Shown: piece after piece, positions 5,647 to 62,574 of the stretch
Layout of the letters: each line of letters opens with the position of its first letter
How positions within the stretch are numbered: the first letter of the stretch is position 1
Source of the DNA: a virus
Taxonomy: Duplodnaviria; Caudoviricetes
DNA: 64,000 nt
Virus record (IMG/VR): IMGVR_UViG_2898748948_000004
Coordinates: 22,443 to 86,442 of that record
Strand: one strand, 5' to 3'
Translations under genes and position numbers: made by a program
Notes under the pieces: generated by a model
Told to the model about the DNA's origin: nothing
The model's database searches: none
Seen by the model: the letters and a program-made list of their open reading frames with translations, nothing else

Positions 5647-5929
5647 TTTTCTGTGGTGGCGTTGAGTGATTGGAGCCTTTGCCGTTGCAAGGCCTTCAGT
5701 AGCCGCTCGGGGGCAGCCATGTTGTGGTGCCTCTCCAAAGAGAGGGGGTGCTGTCCTGCACCATCGCGGCGGTGGATTGGGCCAACTAGACCTAGCGCGC
5801 ATGGCGCGTCGGTGTAGCCCACGGAGTCGAACCGTGTCCAATCCACCTGCGTGATGGCCCCGCTTAGCCCTGCGGGAGTGGGCAACGATCAGGGCTCGTA
5901 TAGGCCCGAGGCAAACATTTCAATCTCCT

Positions 5930-5968
5930 TTCAACCTCAAGCCATCTGTCACAAGGCTTGAGGTTGAA
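5930..5968. repeat. Perfect 14-bp inverted repeat (hairpin)
   Basis: TTCAACCTCAAGCC, 11-nt loop, GGCTTGAGGTTGAA. Confidence 0.9.
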
Positions 5969-6424
5969 GCCCGGATTACGCGCCGGGTCGCAGGGGCCGC
6001 TGGCCGCCCCAATGACGGCATCAATATGCCGCGCCGCTTTTTTGTTTCCCTTTGGTGTCATCCCGTCCGTTAGCTGCGCCACATAGGCGCAGCAGCATCA
6101 GCCTGCGAGGGCGGTGTTTCATTTGTCGGCTCTTGGATAGCTGGCGCTACCCCGTCACGGCCTCCCGCCTACGCTGCACATGCAAGCTGTGCTGTCCGTA
6201 TCTTTTCCCAAGGCCCTTCACCGATTTAACGGACTGGCCACCGCGCGGAAATTCGCGGCGCGCTGCTGGCTCTCACCAGCCTGGGCCATGCCCCAGTGCG
6301 CAATTGACCCGGACGAATGCCCCACAGGTAGGGCAAGCAACATCGGGTGACGATTTTTTAAAGAGCGAAGCGGAGAGCATTTGCCCGCCGAACGGAAATG
6401 CATTTGCTTTTCTGATGTGGTGAA

Positions 6425-6443
6425 TCTTGCCATAAGTGGAAAG
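6425..6443. promoter_or_regulatory. Putative repressor operator (OL)
   Basis: TCTTGCCATAAGTGGAAAG matches the reverse complement of 7432-7450 at 17 of 19 positions; CCA-N4-TGG palindromic core. Confidence 0.7.
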
Positions 6444-6523
6444 AAAAATGCAAAAGAAGTCGATAGATTTTTTGAATAAAGAATCTCTCTTAATTAGAAA
6501 TATCTTCAACATATGGAAAATTA

Positions 6524-20368: not shown

Positions 20369-22702
20369 ATGCAGCCTATGACACACAAACCCATGGGCGA
20401 CAACGCCCAGCAAGCGTTTGAACGCGGCTTCAAAGACACCATGGCCACAGTCATGCCGGGTACCGAAGTGGAGGATCAGGACACTATCGAGGCCAAGATC
20501 CGACACGAGCGCGATACCTTTCTGCTCAACCTCATTGCAAAGCGCCGCGAAGCTGTCTCTGGACGCAACTCATCCGGCATTGAGTTGGAGTGGAGCGAAG
20601 ACGAAGAGCATTACCAAGGCATTGATGATGCCAACCGGGCATTTCACGCTGCCAACCAGCTCTATCGCACCTCCAAGGCCCATATGCTCGGTAAGGATAC
20701 GACGGGCCCGGCCGGGCCTGCGCGTTCCGTGGTGTTCCTTAATATCACTCGCTCCTATGTGGATGCCGCCAGCGCGCGAGTGTCCGACATGCTGCTCCCA
20801 ACGGATGATCGGGCCTGGGCTATCAGTCCGACCCCGATCCCGAAACTCACTCCGTACCTGATGCAGCAGTTGCGCGACATGATGGGGCTCAGCTATAGCC
20901 AAAAGGTGATGGAGCAGTTTGTGGATCTGCAGATCCAGAACGCCAAGACCGCTGCCAAGAAGATGGAGCAAGCGATTGAGGACTGCTTGGTCGAGTCCAA
21001 CTGGCACGGCGAGATGCGTCAGATGATTGAAGACTCAGGGCGCATTGGCTCGGGTGTTTTCAAAGGCCCGTTCCCCGTGCGCCGCGTGGCTCGGATGACG
21101 AAGCGAGATCCGGTGACAGGTGAAGTCAAGTTCATTCGCCTGTCTGAAATCAAGCCTGGCTCCAAGCGCATTGATCCCTGGAACTTCTTCCCTGACCCTG
21201 CCTGCGGTGAGAACATCCACAACGGAAGCTACACCTGGGAGCGTGAGTATCTGTCGAGCCGCAAGGTCAAGGAAATGCTCGAAATGCCTGGCTATGACAA
21301 GGCTGAGCTGATGGCTGTCCTGCGTGAAGGGCCAAAGTCCGCCCGTGAAGGTTCGGAATCAAGCCATCGACAGAACGATGCCGAGTTTGAAATGTGGATT
21401 TTCCACGGTCACTGCGCGGCCGAGCACCTGCGCATGTACGGTGTGGAGCTGGAAGATGATGTGGAAGAGAAGATGCCCACCATGGCCGTGGTGATCAACG
21501 ATCGACTGGTCAAGATCACTCTGTCAGCCATGGATGAGGGAGAGTTTCCATATGATGTGCTGGCCTGGCAGCGCCGCCCTGGCTTGCCTTGGGGTGTGGG
21601 TGTGTCCCGACAGATCCGTACTGTGCAACGCATCTTGAATGGCTCCGTTCGCGCCATGATGGATAACGCAAGTCTGAGCGCGGCGCCCCAGATCATCCTG
21701 GGCAACAAGGTGACACCCGAGGACGGCAACTGGACTTTGTACCCGGGTAAACGCTGGCGCGTTGAGGCGGACTCAGACATCACCGATGTACGGCAGGCGT
21801 TCAATGCCTTCATCGTCCCAAGCGTTCAGAACGAGTTGATGAACATCATCAACTGGGCCATGTCTATGGCAGAGGACACCACCGGCTTGCCTGCCATGCT
21901 GCAGGGAATCCGGGGGGATTCTCCCAATACGCTGGGAGGCATGCAGCTTCAGGATAACAACGCATCCAGTGTTTTGCGCCGTCTGGCGCGCCGCTTTGAC
22001 GACTATGTGACCCAACCACATATCCAGCGCTATTTTGACTGGATGATGCAGTACAGCGACGACGACAGCATCAAGGGCGACTTTCAGATCGATGTGCGTG
22101 CGTCTTCTGCACTTCTGGAGCGCAGCAATCAGCAATCTTTCCTCATGCAGATGCTGGCGATCTCTAAAGACCCGACATACGGCCTCGACCCGGCGCGCCT
22201 CATGAAGGAGCTGCTCAAGGGGCAGCGCCTTGACCCCGAGCGTGTGGCATTGACGGAAGAGCAGAAGCAGGCTCAAGCGGAGAAGGCCGCGCCGCAAGAC
22301 CCGACACTTCAGGCGCGTGCACAACTCCTGTCCGCCCAGGCCGAGCACACTCAGGCTCGTACCGCCGTGGAGCATGTCAAAGTCTCCGTGGAGCAAGCAC
22401 GCGCCGAGCAGCTTCAGGCACAAGCAGCGACAACGAATGTTGAGGGCATGTATAGCGCTACCGAGGCGGCCAAGAACCTGCTGATGGCATCCCCTGTGGC
22501 GGGTGCCTCTGACGCAATTTGGAAGTCGGCTGGTGGGACAGACAAGGATCTGCCCCCGGCGCTCCCCCAGGTGCAAGGCAATGAGTTGGTGGCAAGTGGG
22601 CTGGTTCCACCACCTCAGACCAATACCAACCCCTTGACCCCCGCCAATCCAGCATCGCCTGCTACAGGAATGATGGCCGGCATCGAAGGGGGCGGCGACT
22701 GA
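20369..22702 (+). CDS. Portal protein (podovirus, P22/N4-like)
   Basis: Follows terL; RIDPWNFFPDP, PWGVGVSRQIR, TGLPAMLQG; coiled-coil C-terminal barrel. Confidence 0.85.
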   Translation: MQPMTHKPMGDNAQQAFERGFKDTMATVMPGTEVEDQDTIEAKIRHERDTFLLNLIAKRREAVSGRNSSGIELEWSEDEEHYQGIDDANRAFHAANQLYRTSKAHMLGKDTTGPAGPARSVVFLNITRSYVDAASARVSDMLLPTDDRAWAISPTPIPKLTPYLMQQLRDMMGLSYSQKVMEQFVDLQIQNAKTAAKKMEQAIEDCLVESNWHGEMRQMIEDSGRIGSGVFKGPFPVRRVARMTKRDPVTGEVKFIRLSEIKPGSKRIDPWNFFPDPACGENIHNGSYTWEREYLSSRKVKEMLEMPGYDKAELMAVLREGPKSAREGSESSHRQNDAEFEMWIFHGHCAAEHLRMYGVELEDDVEEKMPTMAVVINDRLVKITLSAMDEGEFPYDVLAWQRRPGLPWGVGVSRQIRTVQRILNGSVRAMMDNASLSAAPQIILGNKVTPEDGNWTLYPGKRWRVEADSDITDVRQAFNAFIVPSVQNELMNIINWAMSMAEDTTGLPAMLQGIRGDSPNTLGGMQLQDNNASSVLRRLARRFDDYVTQPHIQRYFDWMMQYSDDDSIKGDFQIDVRASSALLERSNQQSFLMQMLAISKDPTYGLDPARLMKELLKGQRLDPERVALTEEQKQAQAEKAAPQDPTLQARAQLLSAQAEHTQARTAVEHVKVSVEQARAEQLQAQAATTNVEGMYSATEAAKNLLMASPVAGASDAIWKSAGGTDKDLPPALPQVQGNELVASGLVPPPQTNTNPLTPANPASPATGMMAGIEGGGD

Positions 22703-55299: not shown

Positions 55300-56216
55300 T
55301 GGTAAACCGCCGACCATTGGCCCGAGTGAGCGGGCGCACCCGTCAGCTCCCCGCCGGTGATCAACTGGATTCGGCGGTGCTGGCCAATGCCATCGCGGTG
55401 GTGCTCACAGAGCTGGTCACCAGTGACAAGTCGGCTGTCGCTGCCACCGATACGGTGCTGCAGGCCATTGGCAAGCTGCAGGCCCAGGCCTCTCTGGCGC
55501 TGACTGTAGACCATATAGGCGCGGCGCCGAACCAGATCCCGGCCGTGACGCATCTGGGCGCGCTGGCCTTTGTCGATCAAGTCGGGGCCACCATGGTTCT
55601 GAGGCATACGCCGGCATCCAGCCCCGGGCATTGGTGGCGGGAGTACATCAGCGACACCCAGACCACTATCAAGTTCCACGGGTTCGACAACACGGTGCGG
55701 ACTGTCTCTGAGGTCGGGCCACAGGGCCCCCAGGGGGCGACAGGGCCAGTTGGCCCCACTGGAGCCACAGGTGCCACCGGGCCGGAAGGGCCAGCCGGGC
55801 CAGCAGGAGCGGCAGGGGCAACCGGTGCGGCTGGTCCCCAAGGCCCAAAAGGGGATACCGGGGCCACGGGTTCTCAGGGGCCGAAGGGAGACAAGGGTGA
55901 TACCGGTGCCCAAGGTGTGCAGGGCATCCAAGGCCCAAAAGGGGATACAGGCGCAACTGGCCCCCAGGGCGCAAAGGGCGACACCGGGACTTTTGACACC
56001 GGACAGGTCGGCAGTGCCCCAAATCAGTTGCCCGCTGGCGCGCACCTCGGCGCCATGGCTTTTATGGATGAGGTCGGCACGACCATGGTTTATCAGCACA
56101 GCCCTGATCAGCAGCTGAATGCGGTGTGGCGCGAACGGGTCAGTAATACCGAAACAACTTTGAAATACAGGGGCAGCGATGGCGTGATTCGCAGCCGTCA
56201 GGAGCTTTGGACATGA
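55299..56216 (+). CDS. Collagen-like tail fibre with a duplicated domain
   Basis: Long G-X-Y run (~55720-55990) flanked by two homologous G.APNQ.PA..HLGA.AF.D.VG.TMV..H domains. Confidence 0.75.
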
Positions 56217-57397
56217 GTGTCATCGCCGGACTTCCAGATATTCGCCCCAGTCTGCTGCTGGATTTTGCCAACAGCCGCAGGGTCGATCCGCGAATACAGT
56301 TTACGCGTGCCAGCACGGCCACCTGCTTTGGTCCAGATGGTGTGTTGCGCACCGTAGGGAAAGGAATTCCGCGTATTGATTTCGACCCGGCGACAGGGGC
56401 ATGTCTCGGGCTTCTCATTGAAGAGTCTAGGACAAACCTGATTCTCCAAAGCACAGGAGACTCTGCTAAAGCACCTTGGAATAAAGGTGTGAACCTGACT
56501 CGTGTAGGTAACGCTCTTGCCCCAGATGGTACAAATACCGCGACGACCTACACGCCCGCTGCTGTAGGCAATGCCTATATTGGTCAATCTCACCAAAGAG
56601 CTGCAAATACAACATATGCAGTAAGTTGTTACGCAAGGATTCGATCAGGGAACGTTCCTACTGGCGGGGGGATTATTACCATTGATTACGACGCTAACGG
56701 AAATACTGGAGACTTAGAGCGCATTATTTTGCCATTTGAGGGTTCAGGTATTTCCTCGGAGTGGAAGAGGTTCTCTCTAACATTTACTAACGTTTCAGCG
56801 TATACAGCTAGTACATACTTTTGCACTGACTTTAACCCAGGTACTGAAATAGATCTGTGGGGCTGTCAGTTAGAAGTTGGAAACTTTCCTACAAGCTATA
56901 TTCCAACAACCACTTCTGAAGCCACTCGTGCAGCAGACTACGCAGTAATGCGTGACTCTGATTTCAGCAGTTGGTATAGGTCAGATCGTGGGACTTTTTT
57001 GGTTGAAGCATCGTGTTATACAGCTCGTCCTTCTGGTGCAAGACACACTCTTACATTTACAGATGGCACCGATATGCAGATGGTGGTAAAGATTCCAAGA
57101 CCGACAGGCCTTACTGGATTCACTGTTACTAAAAATGGTTCTCCTACTGCTGAGCTGTTCGGCAATGATTACGTTGCTAAGACTTTTGTCAAAGTTGCAG
57201 CAGCCTACGCCAGGGCTAACTTTGGTTTTGCGGATAACGGTGTGGTAACTGCAAATATGTCAGGAGATATGCCAGTTGGCGTAAATCGTCTTGATATTGG
57301 CTCTTACGGTCCTTACTATCAGAATGGGCACATTAAAAGAATTGCTTATTACCCTGTCCGGCTTTCCGATACACAACTTCAAAGGCTCACAGCATGA
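56213..57397 (+). CDS. Spike or receptor-binding fibre protein (LamG/CBM-like)
   Basis: [47 protein letters not shown]; visibly lower-GC interior. Confidence 0.75.
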
Positions 57398-58135: not shown

Positions 58136-58432
58136 ATGAAAAGAGCACTCGCATCAGTCCTAGCGCTGCTGGGCATCCATCAGCACTTGAGTGCCGAGCA
58201 AAAGCAGGATTTAGCCACAGCGGCCTTTCAGGCCACGCCAGGGGCGGTTACTGCAGGTGGTTTTCGCCTTGCGGGCCTCCCTTTGAGTGACTGGCTGGTT
58301 ATGGCTTCGATCGCCTTTGTGGGTCTGCAGGCGGCCTACCTGGTCTGGAAGTGGCGCCGCGACTACAAGCACGAGCAGGCCCGTCAAGAACTGCGCGAGA
58401 GAGCCAAATCGGCTGTTGGGGGTGTGCAATGA
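58136..58432 (+). CDS. Holin-like membrane protein
   Basis: TM helix LSDWLVMASIAFVGLQAAYLVWKW with a basic C-tail; directly upstream of the endolysin. Confidence 0.7.
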   Translation: MKRALASVLALLGIHQHLSAEQKQDLATAAFQATPGAVTAGGFRLAGLPLSDWLVMASIAFVGLQAAYLVWKWRRDYKHEQARQELRERAKSAVGGVQ

Positions 58433-59082
58433 GCAAGATCCCATCCGCGTTGCGTAACAGTCTCGGCGCGCTGATGCTGCTCATTGGTATGGGCAGTGGC
58501 ACCTACTACGTAGATCAAGCCGCTTCGGCCGAAGCCCAAAAGAACCAGTACATCCAAGCGGTAGCTGCTGACCCTGGTGTGTCTGACGCCGTTCGCATTG
58601 CCATGGTGATGGGGTCGTACTACGAATCCAGCAATCGCCATATCGGTACTCCCTACATCGACAAGCTGGGCAAGGGGCAGCCCCTGACCGTGTGCAACGG
58701 GATCACCGGAGCAGGTGTGATTGCGGGTAGGTGGTACAGCCCGGCCGAGTGCTACCGACTGGAGAAAGGCCGGTACCTGGCCGCCGAGCGCACCGCTATG
58801 CGCGTGTTCGTGCACTGGGCCAGCTATGACGACTTCGCCCGGGCCACGTTCATCGACTTCATCCACAACAAGGGTGAAACCAATCTGAGCACCAGCACGC
58901 TGCTGCGCAAGGCGAATGCCGGGGATCTTGAAGGATCTTGCCGAGAGAACCCGCGCTGGAGCAAGGGCACGGTCAATGGTGTGCAGACGGTGCTGCCCGG
59001 CTTGAAGCTGCGCGGCGAGGCCAACGATGAGATTTGCCGCCTTTGGCGCGTGCCCCTCCAACCAACCAACCTAGGGAAATGA
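58429..59082 (+). CDS. GH24 lysozyme, probable SAR endolysin
   Basis: N-terminal hydrophobic segment; E..D..T triad region YESS..YIDK..LTVCNGIT; STLLRKANAGD. Confidence 0.88.
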   Translation: MSKIPSALRNSLGALMLLIGMGSGTYYVDQAASAEAQKNQYIQAVAADPGVSDAVRIAMVMGSYYESSNRHIGTPYIDKLGKGQPLTVCNGITGAGVIAGRWYSPAECYRLEKGRYLAAERTAMRVFVHWASYDDFARATFIDFIHNKGETNLSTSTLLRKANAGDLEGSCRENPRWSKGTVNGVQTVLPGLKLRGEANDEICRLWRVPLQPTNLGK

Positions 59083-59083
59083 C

Positions 59084-59374
59084 ATGAAAAAGATTGCTGA
59101 CTATCGCATCGTGCGCGGCGGTGACGCCAACGAGCTGCAAGGCAAGGTGCGCGAAGCCCTGATCGCAGGCCTGCAGCCTCTAGGCGCTCCGCTGGTGAAC
59201 GGCCGCGACCTGATGCAGGCCATGGTCTTGCCGATCGCAGAGCCCGAGCCGCAGACCCTTTCCGCCGCCGCGGCCGAAGCCCAGGAGCAACTGGCAGGCG
59301 TGACTGCAGAATCCGCCCCCCAAGTGCTGGTCGCGCTGGAGTCGGCCGTTCAAGACGTTGTTGACCAAGCATGA
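59084..59374 (+). CDS. DUF1737-like protein
   Basis: YRIVRG....LQGKVREAL..G.QPLGAP......MQAMV. Confidence 0.7.
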   Translation: MKKIADYRIVRGGDANELQGKVREALIAGLQPLGAPLVNGRDLMQAMVLPIAEPEPQTLSAAAAEAQEQLAGVTAESAPQVLVALESAVQDVVDQA

Positions 59375-59832
59375 GGTTCGGTGACGCACTCAAGGCGCTG
59401 GAACTCGGCAAGAGCTTGCAGCGCACGGGTTGGAATGGCAAGGGCTTGTTCGTCTATCTGGTGCCAGCAGCCAGCTACCAGGCGCAAACCGGTGCAGCGA
59501 GGGAGCACTTTGGCGAAGGTGCCATGGTGCCCTACAACGCCTACTTTGCGATCAAGAACGCGAACGAGACTGTTAGCACCTGGGTTCCCAGTGTGAATGA
59601 TTGCCTGGCAGATGACTGGGGGGTGGTTGGTTGCGCGGTACCGCCGCACCAGCAGTGCGTTCTGGATGAAAAGCAGGATACGGACATTCGTATCACCAAG
59701 CTGGACGAGTTCATTGAGCGCAATCCGGCTTTCCTCGATCTGCCGGTTTCCGAGCGCAGTCGCATGAAACGCCAGCTCGATGTGATGCAGGAGCTGTCCA
59801 CCATCCTGGCCGAGCGCATCGCGGCCTTCTGA
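59371..59832 (+). CDS. DUF2829 (Tad2-like) domain fused to a crAss001_48-like helical domain
   Basis: MRFGDALKALELGK...R.GWNGKG.F.YL, WVPSVNDCLADDW; then PHQQCVLDEK..LDEFI...F..L...MKRQLDVM..LS.ILAERIAAF. Confidence 0.85.
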   Translation: MRFGDALKALELGKSLQRTGWNGKGLFVYLVPAASYQAQTGAAREHFGEGAMVPYNAYFAIKNANETVSTWVPSVNDCLADDWGVVGCAVPPHQQCVLDEKQDTDIRITKLDEFIERNPAFLDLPVSERSRMKRQLDVMQELSTILAERIAAF

Positions 59833-59854
59833 TTCCCGCCACCAAGGAAACCCA

Positions 59855-60250
59855 ATGAGCAACATCATCAAACCTACCGTTGGCCGTAAGGTCTGGTATC
59901 GCCCGTGCAAGGATGACTTGATTGGCCTAGGAGCCATGGCCTGTTCGGCAACCCAGGATGAGCCTGCCCAGGGCCAGCCGCTGGATGCAACCATCATCGC
60001 CGTCTGGGGCGATCGCATGGTCAACGTGCTTGTCACCGACGTGATGGGCAAGCAGTTTCCCGTGCTGTCCGTGGATCTGCTGCAGGCCGGCGACGAGCCG
60101 CGCAAGGATGTCGATGGAAAGATCGCTGGCCGCTATGTGGAATGGATGCCGTACCAGCAGGGCCAGGCGGCAAAGGCCGAGCTACCCGCAATCCAGCCAA
60201 GCGCTGACGCTCTGAGCGCTTCCGCAGGCTTCGCCCGCACCGCTTCCTAA
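59855..60250 (+). CDS. Conserved phage hypothetical protein
   Basis: IKPTVGRKVWY, QPLDATIIAVW, VNVLV, EWMPYQ.GQ. Confidence 0.75.
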   Translation: MSNIIKPTVGRKVWYRPCKDDLIGLGAMACSATQDEPAQGQPLDATIIAVWGDRMVNVLVTDVMGKQFPVLSVDLLQAGDEPRKDVDGKIAGRYVEWMPYQQGQAAKAELPAIQPSADALSASAGFARTAS

Positions 60251-60283
60251 GCCTCCCGGCCCGCACCGGCCGGCTGCCGGATA

Positions 60284-61201
60284 TTGGAGATCCCTGTGAA
60301 CCTGTCTTTCAACACATCCCCCAAGATGCTCCTATGCATCGCCGCCGCGATTCTGGCGGTCCTGCTGTTCTGCGCTTTCAAGGTGAACACCAACCCCAGC
60401 GGAATTGCGCTGACTGGCTTCATCTTCTGCTGCATGGCCCTTGCGGTGTTCGCATTGACTGCCAGGATTGATCTGGTGTTTCGAGCGTTGCTTGAGCAGC
60501 TGGAGCCCAAAACGGGCGGCGCAACGGGAGGCACGCTGGGCTCTGTCAATGCCACGCAGCCATACCGCGAGCGTAGCCAACGTGAGGATCTAATTCAATC
60601 GCTTGTGCATTCGCTGGCCCCTGGCTTGATCAGCAACAGCTTAATCAACAACATGAAGGCCCCCGACTTGGGCACGTATATCCGGGAAGTGGCAGACAAT
60701 ATTCTGGGCAGTGGGACTCAGACGCCCACAGTGGCTTGTACATGCGGCCCAAATGACGGGTGCAGCAATTGCTATCGCTTGGCCGTCGAACGCTACAAGG
60801 CCGGCCTGTCCATTGCCGCTGCGGCCGGACGGGTGACTGTGGGGGATATGGAGCCTCATTTGGCCTCTGTAGGAGTGCAGGCCGACCAACGGGCCGAAGC
60901 GGAGATTGTTGCTGCTGGCCTGACTGCACCGCGCGTGACTGCCGAGCAGATCCAAGGGCTGATGGCGAAAATAACGTGGCTCTACGAGCAGCCGGCTGGT
61001 ACCACCAGCACCCTTGCACATGCCTTCTTGGGTCGCTTCTATCTGGCAACCGGCCACAGCGCATGCGTGAGCCCGGAGAATTTCAATGCCGCCCTGGGCA
61101 TGAAATATGCGCGTGAGCAGGCAGAAGGCAAGGCACGCGACAAGCTCTGGGAGCATGAAGGCTACGCCCTAGCCAAGTCGCTGCAGGTACTGCCATCGTG
61201 A
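60284..61201 (+). CDS. Two-TM N-terminal extension fused to a Gp49/Sf6-gp66-family domain (Acb4-like)
   Basis: C-terminal EIVAAGLTAPRVT..QI, TGHSACVSPENFNAALG.KYARE.A..KLWEHEGY.L; possible internal ATG at 60848. Confidence 0.75.
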   Translation: MEIPVNLSFNTSPKMLLCIAAAILAVLLFCAFKVNTNPSGIALTGFIFCCMALAVFALTARIDLVFRALLEQLEPKTGGATGGTLGSVNATQPYRERSQREDLIQSLVHSLAPGLISNSLINNMKAPDLGTYIREVADNILGSGTQTPTVACTCGPNDGCSNCYRLAVERYKAGLSIAAAAGRVTVGDMEPHLASVGVQADQRAEAEIVAAGLTAPRVTAEQIQGLMAKITWLYEQPAGTTSTLAHAFLGRFYLATGHSACVSPENFNAALGMKYAREQAEGKARDKLWEHEGYALAKSLQVLPS

Positions 61202-61232: not shown

Positions 61233-61631
61233 ATGGTTCTGGTGGAGGCTGGCATGGGAAAGCTGATCCCAGCTTTGGTGCTCGCCATACTGCTGAGCAT
61301 ATTGGGGAACATCTGGCAGGCGAGAACCTATCTTGAGCTGCGCGATGCTTTGACGAGTGCCCGGGCCGAGATTACTCGTTCCAGCGAAGATCTGGCAGGG
61401 GCTCAGTCCTTGGCGTCGGCCTGCAGTGATGCCACCGAAGATCTGCGCGAGCTGGCAGACAAGCGCGAGCTTGAAGCCGCGGGGGCGCGCGAGCAGGCGC
61501 GTTTGGTGGCTGCTGGGCAGGAGAAACAAGCCGACGCCATCTTGGCCAAGCCAGATCCGGTGCCAGGCGATGCGTGTGCCAGTGCGCAGCTTCTGGTTGA
61601 CGACTGGCTTCGCCAAAGGACAAAGCCATGA
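61233..61631 (+). CDS. i-spanin (Rz-like)
   Basis: N-terminal TM helix followed by a coiled coil. Confidence 0.75.
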   Translation: MVLVEAGMGKLIPALVLAILLSILGNIWQARTYLELRDALTSARAEITRSSEDLAGAQSLASACSDATEDLRELADKRELEAAGAREQARLVAAGQEKQADAILAKPDPVPGDACASAQLLVDDWLRQRTKP

Positions 61632-61903
61632 GCAAAGCAGTATTGGCTGTGGCGGCCATTATCTTGGCCGGCTGCCAGAGTACCCCGCCTAAGATTGTGC
61701 TGCAGGAGGTCAAGGTGGCTGTCCCGGTCGAATGCAAAGAGCCTGTGCCAGACCGCCCGGCCATGCCGACAGAATCGCTGCAGCCAAGTACTCCGCTACC
61801 CATATTCGTGAAGGCCGCTCAAGCGGAAATACATCGGCGTGAAGGTTATGAAATCAAGCTGCTGACCGCTTTGCAGAATTGCAGGAAACCAGTCGGCAAG
61901 TAA
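61628..61903 (+). CDS. o-spanin (Rz1-like lipoprotein)
   Basis: Lipobox ILAGC, Pro-rich mature region, overlaps the i-spanin stop. Confidence 0.8.
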   Translation: MSKAVLAVAAIILAGCQSTPPKIVLQEVKVAVPVECKEPVPDRPAMPTESLQPSTPLPIFVKAAQAEIHRREGYEIKLLTALQNCRKPVGK

Positions 61904-62058
61904 TTAACCGGCAGTTATTCAGCGCCGTATATCAGCCCGGGCAGCAGCGATTTGGATTCGCTACTTTCTATCTGAAATTGTTTGGCGCAAGGGGACTTGC
62001 GTCAAATGCGATTTATGAGATCCTGTATGAACCTCAACAACGGAAGGTTCAAAAAGGA

Positions 62059-62574
62059 ATGCGAAAAGTCTCGGGAAATAAGAGGCGCGAACAACGCGCG
62101 GTGACGCTGTTCAGGTCACTGGGAGGGGCGAAACGCTCAGCAGGGTGCAAGCTGCCGAGCGGTTCATTTGAAAAAGAGATGTGGAAATCTAAATTCCGTG
62201 CCGATGGTACAAAGTTCAAATCACCTGCGCAAGCCAGTGTTGTAAGAACTCCCGGCATTCGCATGCTCAATCGGTATGGCGAGGTGTGGTTTGTGGTCAA
62301 GGACATCAGCATCCTGCTCGGCCGCAAGACTGACAGATTCACGTCTTGGCAGTGCATTCCCGAAATGGAACGCGACGTGGATTGGTTTGATCGTGTCGAA
62401 GGGCGAAAGCAGTGTTTGAAGATTGTGACACTGACTGGTCTGCCGGTATTGCTGAAGAGCGTCAGCCCCGCCTGGCGTGAGCGAATTCTCGAATGGGCAC
62501 AGGCAGTGACCGTGGCGGCTGATCAGAATGGAGCCGGCGAGCGAATCACGCTGACTGCTCCAGACCCCATGTAA
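62059..62574 (+). CDS. Bro-N-like DNA-binding or antirepressor protein
   Basis: IRMLNRYGEVWFVVKDIS.LLG...IVTLTGL..LL...ILEW. Confidence 0.55.
   Translation: MRKVSGNKRREQRAVTLFRSLGGAKRSAGCKLPSGSFEKEMWKSKFRADGTKFKSPAQASVVRTPGIRMLNRYGEVWFVVKDISILLGRKTDRFTSWQCIPEMERDVDWFDRVEGRKQCLKIVTLTGLPVLLKSVSPAWRERILEWAQAVTVAADQNGAGERITLTAPDPM

Follow-up and report, generated by a model that had tools for sequence, protein, structure and literature searches.

Genes A to D, a block of four closely packed + strand genes at positions 59084-61201, probably form a nucleotide-sponge, i.e., anti-signalling, island. The slot they occupy varies in content and belongs to the lysis cassette of a prophage of the Comamonadaceae type. 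The block lies in the window, meaning the whole stretch of 64,000 nucleotides (nt) analysed here, which covers positions 22,443 to 86,442 of the Caudoviricetes record IMGVR_UViG_2898748948_000004, an 86-kb provirus. According to this explanation, which we consider probable as a whole, genes B, D and C would encode sponge or anti-signalling modules, and gene A would probably stand outside the island. An initial annotation of the block had proposed that it neutralises nucleotide immune signals; this stands for B and D, which carry three characterised sponge-family domains between them, has been strengthened for C and is not upheld for A. The genes and their domains are the following, with lengths in amino acids (aa):

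59084-59374, + strand: gene A, 96 aa, DUF1737-type (borderline)
59371-59832, + strand: gene B, 153 aa, Tad2-like domain plus PF21825
59371-59628, + strand: Tad2-like domain of B, residues 1-86, PF11195
59641-59832, + strand: Sequestin domain of B, residues 91-153, PF21825
59855-60250, + strand: gene C, 131 aa, without Pfam match; phrog_2293 (E 5e-7), which is unannotated
60284/60296-61201, + strand: gene D, 305/301 aa depending on the start codon, PF13876
60320-60502, + strand: two-helix transmembrane hairpin of D, residues ~13-34 and ~41-73 (305-aa numbering)
60578-60823, + strand: middle helical region of D with a CxC...CxxC motif, residues ~99-180, the most variable part of D
60869-61180, + strand: Acb4 domain of D, residues ~196-299, PF13876

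Gene B would encode a two-domain sponge. Its N-terminal domain matches PF11195 (DUF2829) over profile positions 1-73 of 73 with 79.9 bits at a cut-off of 25, and the solved ModTad2 structures 8V3E/9EIB are found at E 2.4e-23 with about half of the residues identical; SPO1 Tad2 (8SME) follows at E 5e-13, and HgmTad2 and SptTad2 were matched as well. Kinship with Tad2 is thereby established at the sequence level, as the initial description of B as a DUF2829 fusion had implied. ModTad2 binds histidine-ADP-ribose (His-ADPR), the signal of type II Thoeris, and the Tad2 part of B falls nearest to this clade rather than to SPO1 Tad2. Residues 91-151 match PF21825 with 58 bits (cut-off 24.8). Proteins of this family have been named Sequestin, bind the 3' cyclic ADP-ribose (3'cADPR) of type I Thoeris and cancel this defence (Tal et al. 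2025, bioRxiv 10.1101/2025.07.12.664507). With the tested SequestinB (Table S1 of Tal et al. 2025), the domain shares 42% identity (E 2e-13), and the residues E11, Q45 and R59, whose mutation abolishes anti-Thoeris activity, are all three kept as E100, Q135 and R149 in B. The phosphate-proximal arginine (R7 in SequestinB, R8 in SequestinA), in contrast, is replaced by Cys96; as SequestinA R8A retains activity, this position is not essential (Tal et al. 2025). Judging from domain membership and the conserved Sequestin residues, B would thus be expected to bind ligands of both families.

The combination of Tad2 and PF21825 in one protein is already published. In July 2025, Pfam held 60 Tad2-PF21825 and 91 PF21825-Acb4 fusions (bioRxiv 10.1101/2025.07.12.664507), and the Tad2-Sequestin fusions, exemplified by one from a Comamonas sp. 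mobile element, share with B both domains, their order, a similar size and the activity-essential Glu, Gln and Arg, while B differs by its cysteine at the R7/R8 position. Hence, the fused helical domain, which had been put forward as a candidate new sponge family, is indeed a sponge domain but not a new one. In a comparison of B with positions 6453-6911 of L067, one of three related contigs (L067-L069) treated below, the Tad2 domains share 90% identity and the Sequestin domains only 57%, an intragenic mosaicism that suggests recombination at the domain junction.

Gene D would encode an Acb4-family cyclic-dinucleotide sponge, tethered by its N-terminal hairpin to the cytoplasmic face of the inner membrane. 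Residues 235-298 match PF13876 with 44.8 bits at a cut-off of 27 (47.6 bits in the genome search), and the paper describing Acb4 places the SPO1 protein in exactly this family, that of N4 Gp49 and Sf6 gp66, which confirms the link drawn in the initial annotation. Single-sequence searches of the PDB with D or its C-terminal domain returned noise only and missed Acb4; a profile built from the D domain and nine diverged Acb4 domains matched SPO1 Acb4 (9E4W) at E 1.2e-8. In an AlphaFold2 (AF2) model built with 49 sequences, the domain folds as helix-helix-strand-strand-strand-helix with a pLDDT (predicted local distance difference test) of ~85-93. When this model was used in a Foldseek search of the PDB, ranks 1-10 went without exception to 9E4W chains, with a prob of 0.99-1.00, E-values from 5e-3 to 1e-2 and a TM by target of 0.47-0.55 over 76-100 aligned columns; next came double-stranded RNA-binding domains, which the Acb4 authors likewise found as structural neighbours. 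D thus resembles Acb4 (SPO1 9E4W; N4 gp49) in its Pfam match above threshold, its profile match, its helix-strand-strand-strand-helix core and its top structural match, and it keeps the aromatic and Asn contact positions F48 (as Tyr), F62 and N63. According to the same paper, 3'3'-cGAMP was bound by eight of eight tested homologues, including diverged Gram-negative ones. Ligand binding and oligomeric state of D itself are presumed from domain membership and fold.

The difference from Acb4 lies in ~190 additional N-terminal residues, comprising the conserved hairpin and the variable helical region with its Cys motif. The open reading frame (ORF) of D opens at TTG 60284 (305 aa), and this codon itself forms part of the ribosome-binding site; the start is most likely GTG 60296 (301 aa), because a GGAGA site is located 6 nt upstream and the database gene call for D is also 301 aa long. 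G+C content at third codon positions (GC3) is 0.66-0.74 over every part of D, which supports coding across the whole ORF. Hydropathy marks two segments at residues ~13-34 and ~41-66, the AF2 model has helices at 13-34 and 41-73 followed by a disordered linker, and two N-terminal hydrophobic segments are present in all 49 aligned full-length homologues, so that the initial description of D as a transmembrane-extended Gp49/Sf6-gp66 protein holds. Since Arg and Lys residues follow the second transmembrane segment, both ends are predicted to be cytoplasmic, which would put the Acb4 domain against the membrane from the cytoplasmic side. The middle region is modelled with helices at 99-141 and 164-180 (pLDDT ~55-79) and shares 31-43% identity with relatives; its CxC...CxxC motif is kept in 28 of the 49 homologues. 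Over 100 clusters in the database have this full-length architecture (40-90% identity), and those that carry a name are from Comamonas. For some homologues, 'additional extensions' are noted in the Acb4 paper, which does not speak of a membrane anchor, and our literature search found no description of a membrane-anchored Acb4, which is not proof that none exists; as far as found, D is an undescribed variant of a known family. Proteins of 181 aa with two transmembrane segments (P0073 and relatives) were considered as an independent family and read instead as a truncation, since they stem from the truncated end of a Comamonas testosteroni prophage, directly before host genes.

Two-segment hairpins like that of D are found in many holin-family proteins, and the block is positioned between endolysin and spanins. 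The block, or at least the two-helix part of D, might therefore serve lysis control as an antiholin, pinholin partner or similar rather than immunity. We regard this as very improbable: the cassette already has a separate holin, the C-terminal domain of D is Acb4, and in L063, a prophage of C. testosteroni, Sequestin and a two-transmembrane protein are encoded 3' of a spanin-like gene. In addition, homologues of C lie near lysis genes in few of the 62 IMG/VR loci (53 non-redundant) in which they were found.

Gene C is the part of the island for which a new family may have to be postulated. Its product is modelled by AF2 (pLDDT 84) as an SH3/Tudor-like small beta-barrel of five strands and a short helix, with a core of residues 1-105, the core motifs GRKVWY, VWGDR and EWMPYQ, and a disordered tail. 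It has no Pfam match, and a single-sequence search gave no PDB match beyond noise. A word-based search for the family gave 497 clusters at 55-75% identity with 17 invariant positions, and an exhaustive profile search gave 2,981 clusters (50% identity level) at E<=1e-3, of which 1,465 lie at E<=1e-10. Invariant residues of C include R11, K12, Y15, R54, D62, Q77, W97 and Q101. Among the best 150 relatives, about two thirds are stand-alone proteins of ~90-160 aa. A census of fusions covered the 49 relatives of at least 165 aa, with partners as recognised by Pfam. Acb4 (PF13876) was found in 14 of them, Sequestin (PF21825) in seven and Tad2 (PF11195) in two, so that 23 of the 49 carry one of these three domains, and the sole non-sponge Pfam family found was DUF2158, in one protein. 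The C domain sits N- or C-terminal to the sponge domains and also takes part in triple fusions: the architectures include Acb4+C, C+Acb4, Sequestin+C, C+...+Tad2, Acb4+Sequestin+C, C+Acb4+Sequestin and C+Acb4+RyR. C is a free-standing copy of a barrel domain that elsewhere precedes or follows Acb4, Sequestin, Tad2 and RyR-repeat domains in one and the same protein.

Neighbourhood and structure point in the same direction. A tblastn search of ~1 kb around the C homologue in the 62 IMG/VR loci found Acb4 in 11, Sequestin in seven (five of them near-duplicates) and Tad2 in one, and PF13876 was the commonest Pfam family among 150 neighbour ORFs of the 53 non-redundant loci. In the ESM Atlas, one structural neighbour cluster of C consists to 100% of PF13876 proteins. 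Moreover, the tail of C (ADALSASAGF) is homologous to the linker before the Acb4 domain in a C-Acb4 fusion, for which reason the arrangement in the window looks like a C-Acb4 gene into which a two-transmembrane module has recombined. Fusions of a C-like domain with Sequestin, from Paraburkholderia prophages, are present without comment in the Sequestin table of Tal et al.; the fusion screen of these authors relied on Pfam families (bioRxiv 10.1101/2025.07.12.664507), of which C has none. Positions 4007-5026 of L026 hold a 340-aa triple fusion C + Acb4 + RyR (PF02026), and in the neighbourhood of C homologues, RyR domains were counted three times; the RyR-repeat domain of an N4-like Pseudomonas phage is a reported sponge for gcADPR (bioRxiv 10.64898/2026.06.04.730250).

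Since the recognised fusion partners of the family are nearly all sponge domains, C is a strong candidate for a new sponge or anti-signalling family. It most likely represents one more module acting independently, either by binding a signal or by countering signalling in another way. The fusion evidence is of the same kind as that which led to Sequestin; it concerns association and not function, and any function of C is inferred. The initial suggestion that 59855-60250 might represent a new anti-defence family has thereby gained weight. A more far-reaching version holds that the C domain founds a new and widespread sponge family for a signal beyond those of Tad2, Sequestin and Acb4 (e.g., cyclic trinucleotides, cyclic oligoadenylates or another ADP-ribose derivative), which fusion-based searches missed because it has no Pfam entry, and that the two-transmembrane Acb4 is the first membrane-localised sponge. 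This combination is a serious possibility, held with somewhat more doubt than belief.

Alternatively, C could be a nucleic-acid- or protein-binding barrel of the KOW/Tudor/PWWP type, e.g., a regulator, whose fusions with sponges reflect shared, fast-shuffling accessory regions only. In the VIA-wide structure search it comes closest, with Z scores of 5-5.8, to the barrels of PWWP, Tudor, NusG-KOW and integrase C-terminal domains, and most C loci are neighboured by genes such as those for Mu Gp27, NinB, terminase or GTP cyclohydrolase I/QueF. Z scores of 5-6, however, correspond to the background level of that search, and chance co-location would give varied partners, whereas the in-frame partners that Pfam can name are almost limited to three sponge families, in both orders and including triple fusions. 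We therefore think this alternative unlikely. Searches of the PDB and BFVD with Foldseek and the C model gave nothing at E<=1e-3. Tad1, Tad2, Acb2, Acb4, Sequestin, Lockin and TadIV-1 are absent from the match lists of C (Pfam, PDB, BFVD and VIA-wide), by which a relationship is not excluded. The published Lockin and Acb5 sequences (Tal et al. 2025, supplement) show, judged by eye, no resemblance to C. Lockin and Acb5 are, like C, small phage proteins beside other anti-defence genes; no sponge structure appears among the structural matches of C. No paper describing the C domain was found in the literature search, which again is not proof that none exists.

It is also conceivable that C or the membrane tether of D does not bind an alarm signal but counters host systems that detect sponges, i.e., decoy-signal guards of the Panoptes/PanDA type. 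Acb4 and Acb4-Sequestin sponges trigger Panoptes/PanDA, the effectors of these systems are two-transmembrane membrane proteins, and a module always accompanying sponges would suit a protective accessory. C, however, is mostly a stand-alone gene without a sponge detected nearby, and the idea is purely inferential; we consider it improbable.

Several observations weigh against an anti-signalling island as proposed here. Concerning C, the match is with generic SH3/Tudor/KOW barrels only (best Z 5.8) and with none of the known sponge folds; in 26 of the 49 long relatives, additional regions lack a recognised domain, and about three quarters of the IMG/VR loci with C have no known sponge nearby. 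Concerning D, the Foldseek E-value against 9E4W is modest (5e-3) with a TM by target of about 0.5. By mapping through the hidden Markov model alignment, only four of the ten positions that contact the ligand in SPO1 Acb4 are conserved, namely F62 and N63 unchanged, F48 as Tyr and I66 as Leu; K36, E49, V56, Y57, T70 and K81 differ, so that the ligand of D cannot be named. Finally, SPO1 makes Acb4 shortly after infection, whereas the island is located in a late operon.

Gene A, which had been counted among the sponge candidates by association, has no fusion or neighbourhood tie to sponges outside this prophage group, and DUF1737 is absent among the neighbour ORFs scanned around C homologues. Its N-terminal DUF1737-type domain (~residues 6-48) is followed by an acidic Ala/Glu/Gln-rich tail and scores 22.2 bits against PF08410, just below the gathering cut-off of 24, while the L067 homologue (77% identity) reaches 26 bits. 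Querying the PDB with the single sequence of A returned nothing beyond noise. In L067-L069, the homologue of A is found directly 3' of the endolysin gene every time, and the genes after it differ; only four close homologues were found, which hence provide no independent context. A is thus one of the conserved backbone genes of the prophage group and probably has no share in anti-defence.

A more specific proposal would be that A is a capsid-decorating virion protein, which adjoins the island only as a gene of the late backbone. The sole characterised DUF1737 domain, that of gp84 (the NanS-p esterase) of the Shiga toxin (Stx) phage phi24B, has been described in a preprint as a capsid-decorating module resolved at hexon centres, and the family is mostly single-domain, the fusion partners surveyed in the phi24B paper being esterases and other enzymes but no sponge domains. 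The N-terminal 45 residues of A belong to the same Pfam family (a small strand-helix-strand-strand domain). In Stx phages, nanS-p is located beside the lysis genes, which gene A adjoins likewise. The constant position of A straight after the endolysin, with changing cargo downstream, and the missing link between DUF1737 and C loci or sponge partners are in line with this proposal. On the other hand, A lacks the esterase part, has a borderline Pfam score and, at 77% identity, falls behind the 89-93% of holin, endolysin and spanins, and the likeness to phi24B, known from one preprint, is one of domain match and not of capsid comparison. Capsid binding by A is thus putative, a tentative possibility about which doubt prevails.

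The right end of the window holds tail-fibre genes followed by the lysis cassette, which lies entirely on the + strand. As initially described, four genes separate the endolysin from the spanins, an order confirmed by ORF, Pfam and PHROG matches. The flanking genes are:

58136-58432, + strand: holin, 98 aa, opening the lysis cassette; phrog_920 (E 3.7e-12); 93% identity in L067-L069
58429-59082, + strand: endolysin, a phage lysozyme of 217 aa; PF00959 (52 bits), phrog_7; 93% identity in L067-L069
61233-61631, + strand: i-spanin (Rz-like), 132 aa; phrog_214 and phrog_3774; N-terminal transmembrane segment with hydropathy peak at residues 10-21; 90% identity to L067
61628-61903, + strand: o-spanin (Rz1-like lipoprotein), 91 aa; LAGC lipobox; phrog_3580 and phrog_456, weak match to PF23793 (LysC); 89% identity to L067

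Intergenic gaps across the cassette range from -4 nt (overlap) to 45 nt, the ATG of the endolysin overlaps the stop codon of the holin gene, and a purine-rich, Shine-Dalgarno-like site precedes every start. A consensus scan found no promoter-like site from the holin start (58136) to the o-spanin stop (61903) and no + strand terminator-like site inside genes A-D; weak + strand terminator-like sites at 61571 and 61644 lie in the spanin genes, and those at 59694 and 60413 inside the block are on the - strand. As the genes overlap or nearly touch and such internal sites are missing, the island appears to be co-transcribed with the late lysis genes, and this operon layout suggests late expression. 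GC3 in the annotated frame is 0.66-0.75 for endolysin, genes A-D and i-spanin and 0.62-0.63 for holin and o-spanin.

Further observations concern the surroundings of the island. The endolysin N-terminus (58429-58520) contains a weakly hydrophobic Gly/Ala-rich stretch, LGALMLLIGMGSG, that resembles a signal-anchor-release sequence; such a reading would imply a lysis system of the pinholin type. A 231-aa ORF at 61879-62574, overlapping the o-spanin end, is the final conserved phage gene before the prophage end (86-88% identity in relatives), without Pfam match and with a weak anti-repressor match (phrog_463) only. Among the tail-fibre genes, the second one (56207-57397) lies in a low-GC patch (0.45 vs ~0.60 around) and shares 32-41% identity with relatives, as opposed to 71-87% for the collagen-like fibre gene just before it, and looks like a swapped receptor-binding cassette.

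The variability of the slot becomes apparent from the relatives. In L067-L069, the order is holin, endolysin, DUF1737 gene, a 75-aa gene, a 105-aa gene, Tad2-Sequestin, transmembrane Acb4, Rz and Rz1. While the backbone (holin, endolysin, Rz and Rz1) shares 89-93% identity with the window, the island is a mosaic, with 77% for A, 90% for the Tad2 domain, 57-69% for the Sequestin domain, 31-43% for the middle region of D and 66-92% for its Acb4 domain. Gene C is absent from these contigs, whose islands contain the two other small genes instead. These lie between the DUF1737 gene and Tad2-Sequestin, in L067 at 5915-6142 (75 aa; phrog_1761/5120) and 6139-6456 (105 aa; phrog_419, weak PGDYG match); the window, in contrast, has no gene between A and B and holds C after Tad2-Sequestin. 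By location, the 75-aa and 105-aa genes are candidates for further anti-signalling functions.

The genes that L063 (C. testosteroni) carries 3' of its spanin-like gene, one for Sequestin and one for a truncated two-transmembrane protein, lie at the prophage end. The Sequestin protein (L063:4524-4955, 143 aa) carries Sequestin at residues 81-141 behind an N-terminal domain of ~70 aa that belongs to no named family. This domain is also N-terminal in PHROG profiles with a C-terminal Tad2 (phrog_872) or Acb4 (phrog_9467). Going by these profiles, Sequestin, Tad2 and Acb4 thus have, besides C, another fusion partner without a name. This domain was considered as a relative of C and rejected, as hhalign with the C profile shows no relation.

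Outside these relatives, when the cassette was compared with GenBank phages by blastn, the matches were confined to short stretches of endolysin and DUF2829 in Acidovorax and Alcaligenes phages. Short contigs from soil, freshwater and activated-sludge metagenomes of separate studies, in contrast, cover the island including gene C without any difference, although no single contig spans it and, for freshwater and sludge, a few short stretches lack coverage. A variant from activated sludge (run X5; a single contig of depth 23) comprises the whole island with ~90 substitutions, most of which fall into 60376-60930, i.e., the transmembrane, middle and early Acb4 regions of D, together with an in-frame 3-nt insertion (GAC) behind 60921; beyond 61259, early in the i-spanin gene, it no longer follows the window. 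Taken at the level of sequence, the region has the behaviour of a hot spot at which anti-signalling cargo recombines. Comparable are the Acb4-Sequestin, Acb4-Tad2 and RyR-repeat multi-sponges and the 'anti-signalling hot spot' of N4-like phages (bioRxiv 10.64898/2026.06.04.730250), where several modules likewise share one variable slot and are shuffled like beads on a string. The N4-like hot spot, however, lies in the early/middle replication region, whereas the slot described here belongs to a temperate phage, lies within its late lysis cassette or at the cassette's end, and additionally holds the unnamed C domain.

A 2026 review counts seven sponge families, and Sequestin was found through its fusion to Tad2 and Acb4. 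The C domain displays a signature of the Sequestin type, is at least as widespread (~2,980 clusters at 50% identity) and has no Pfam model, which makes it a concrete and cheaply testable candidate for a further family of sponges or other anti-signalling proteins. With a hairpin conserved in an Acb4 lineage, it becomes a question whether the cellular location of a sponge matters: many effectors of signalling defences, as well as the guards that sense sponges, are two-transmembrane membrane proteins, and a two-transmembrane Acb4 would, if the reading is true, compete for the signal next to such membrane effectors. For temperate Comamonadaceae phages, the end of the lysis cassette can act as an anti-defence hot spot, which is useful for guilt-by-location searches.

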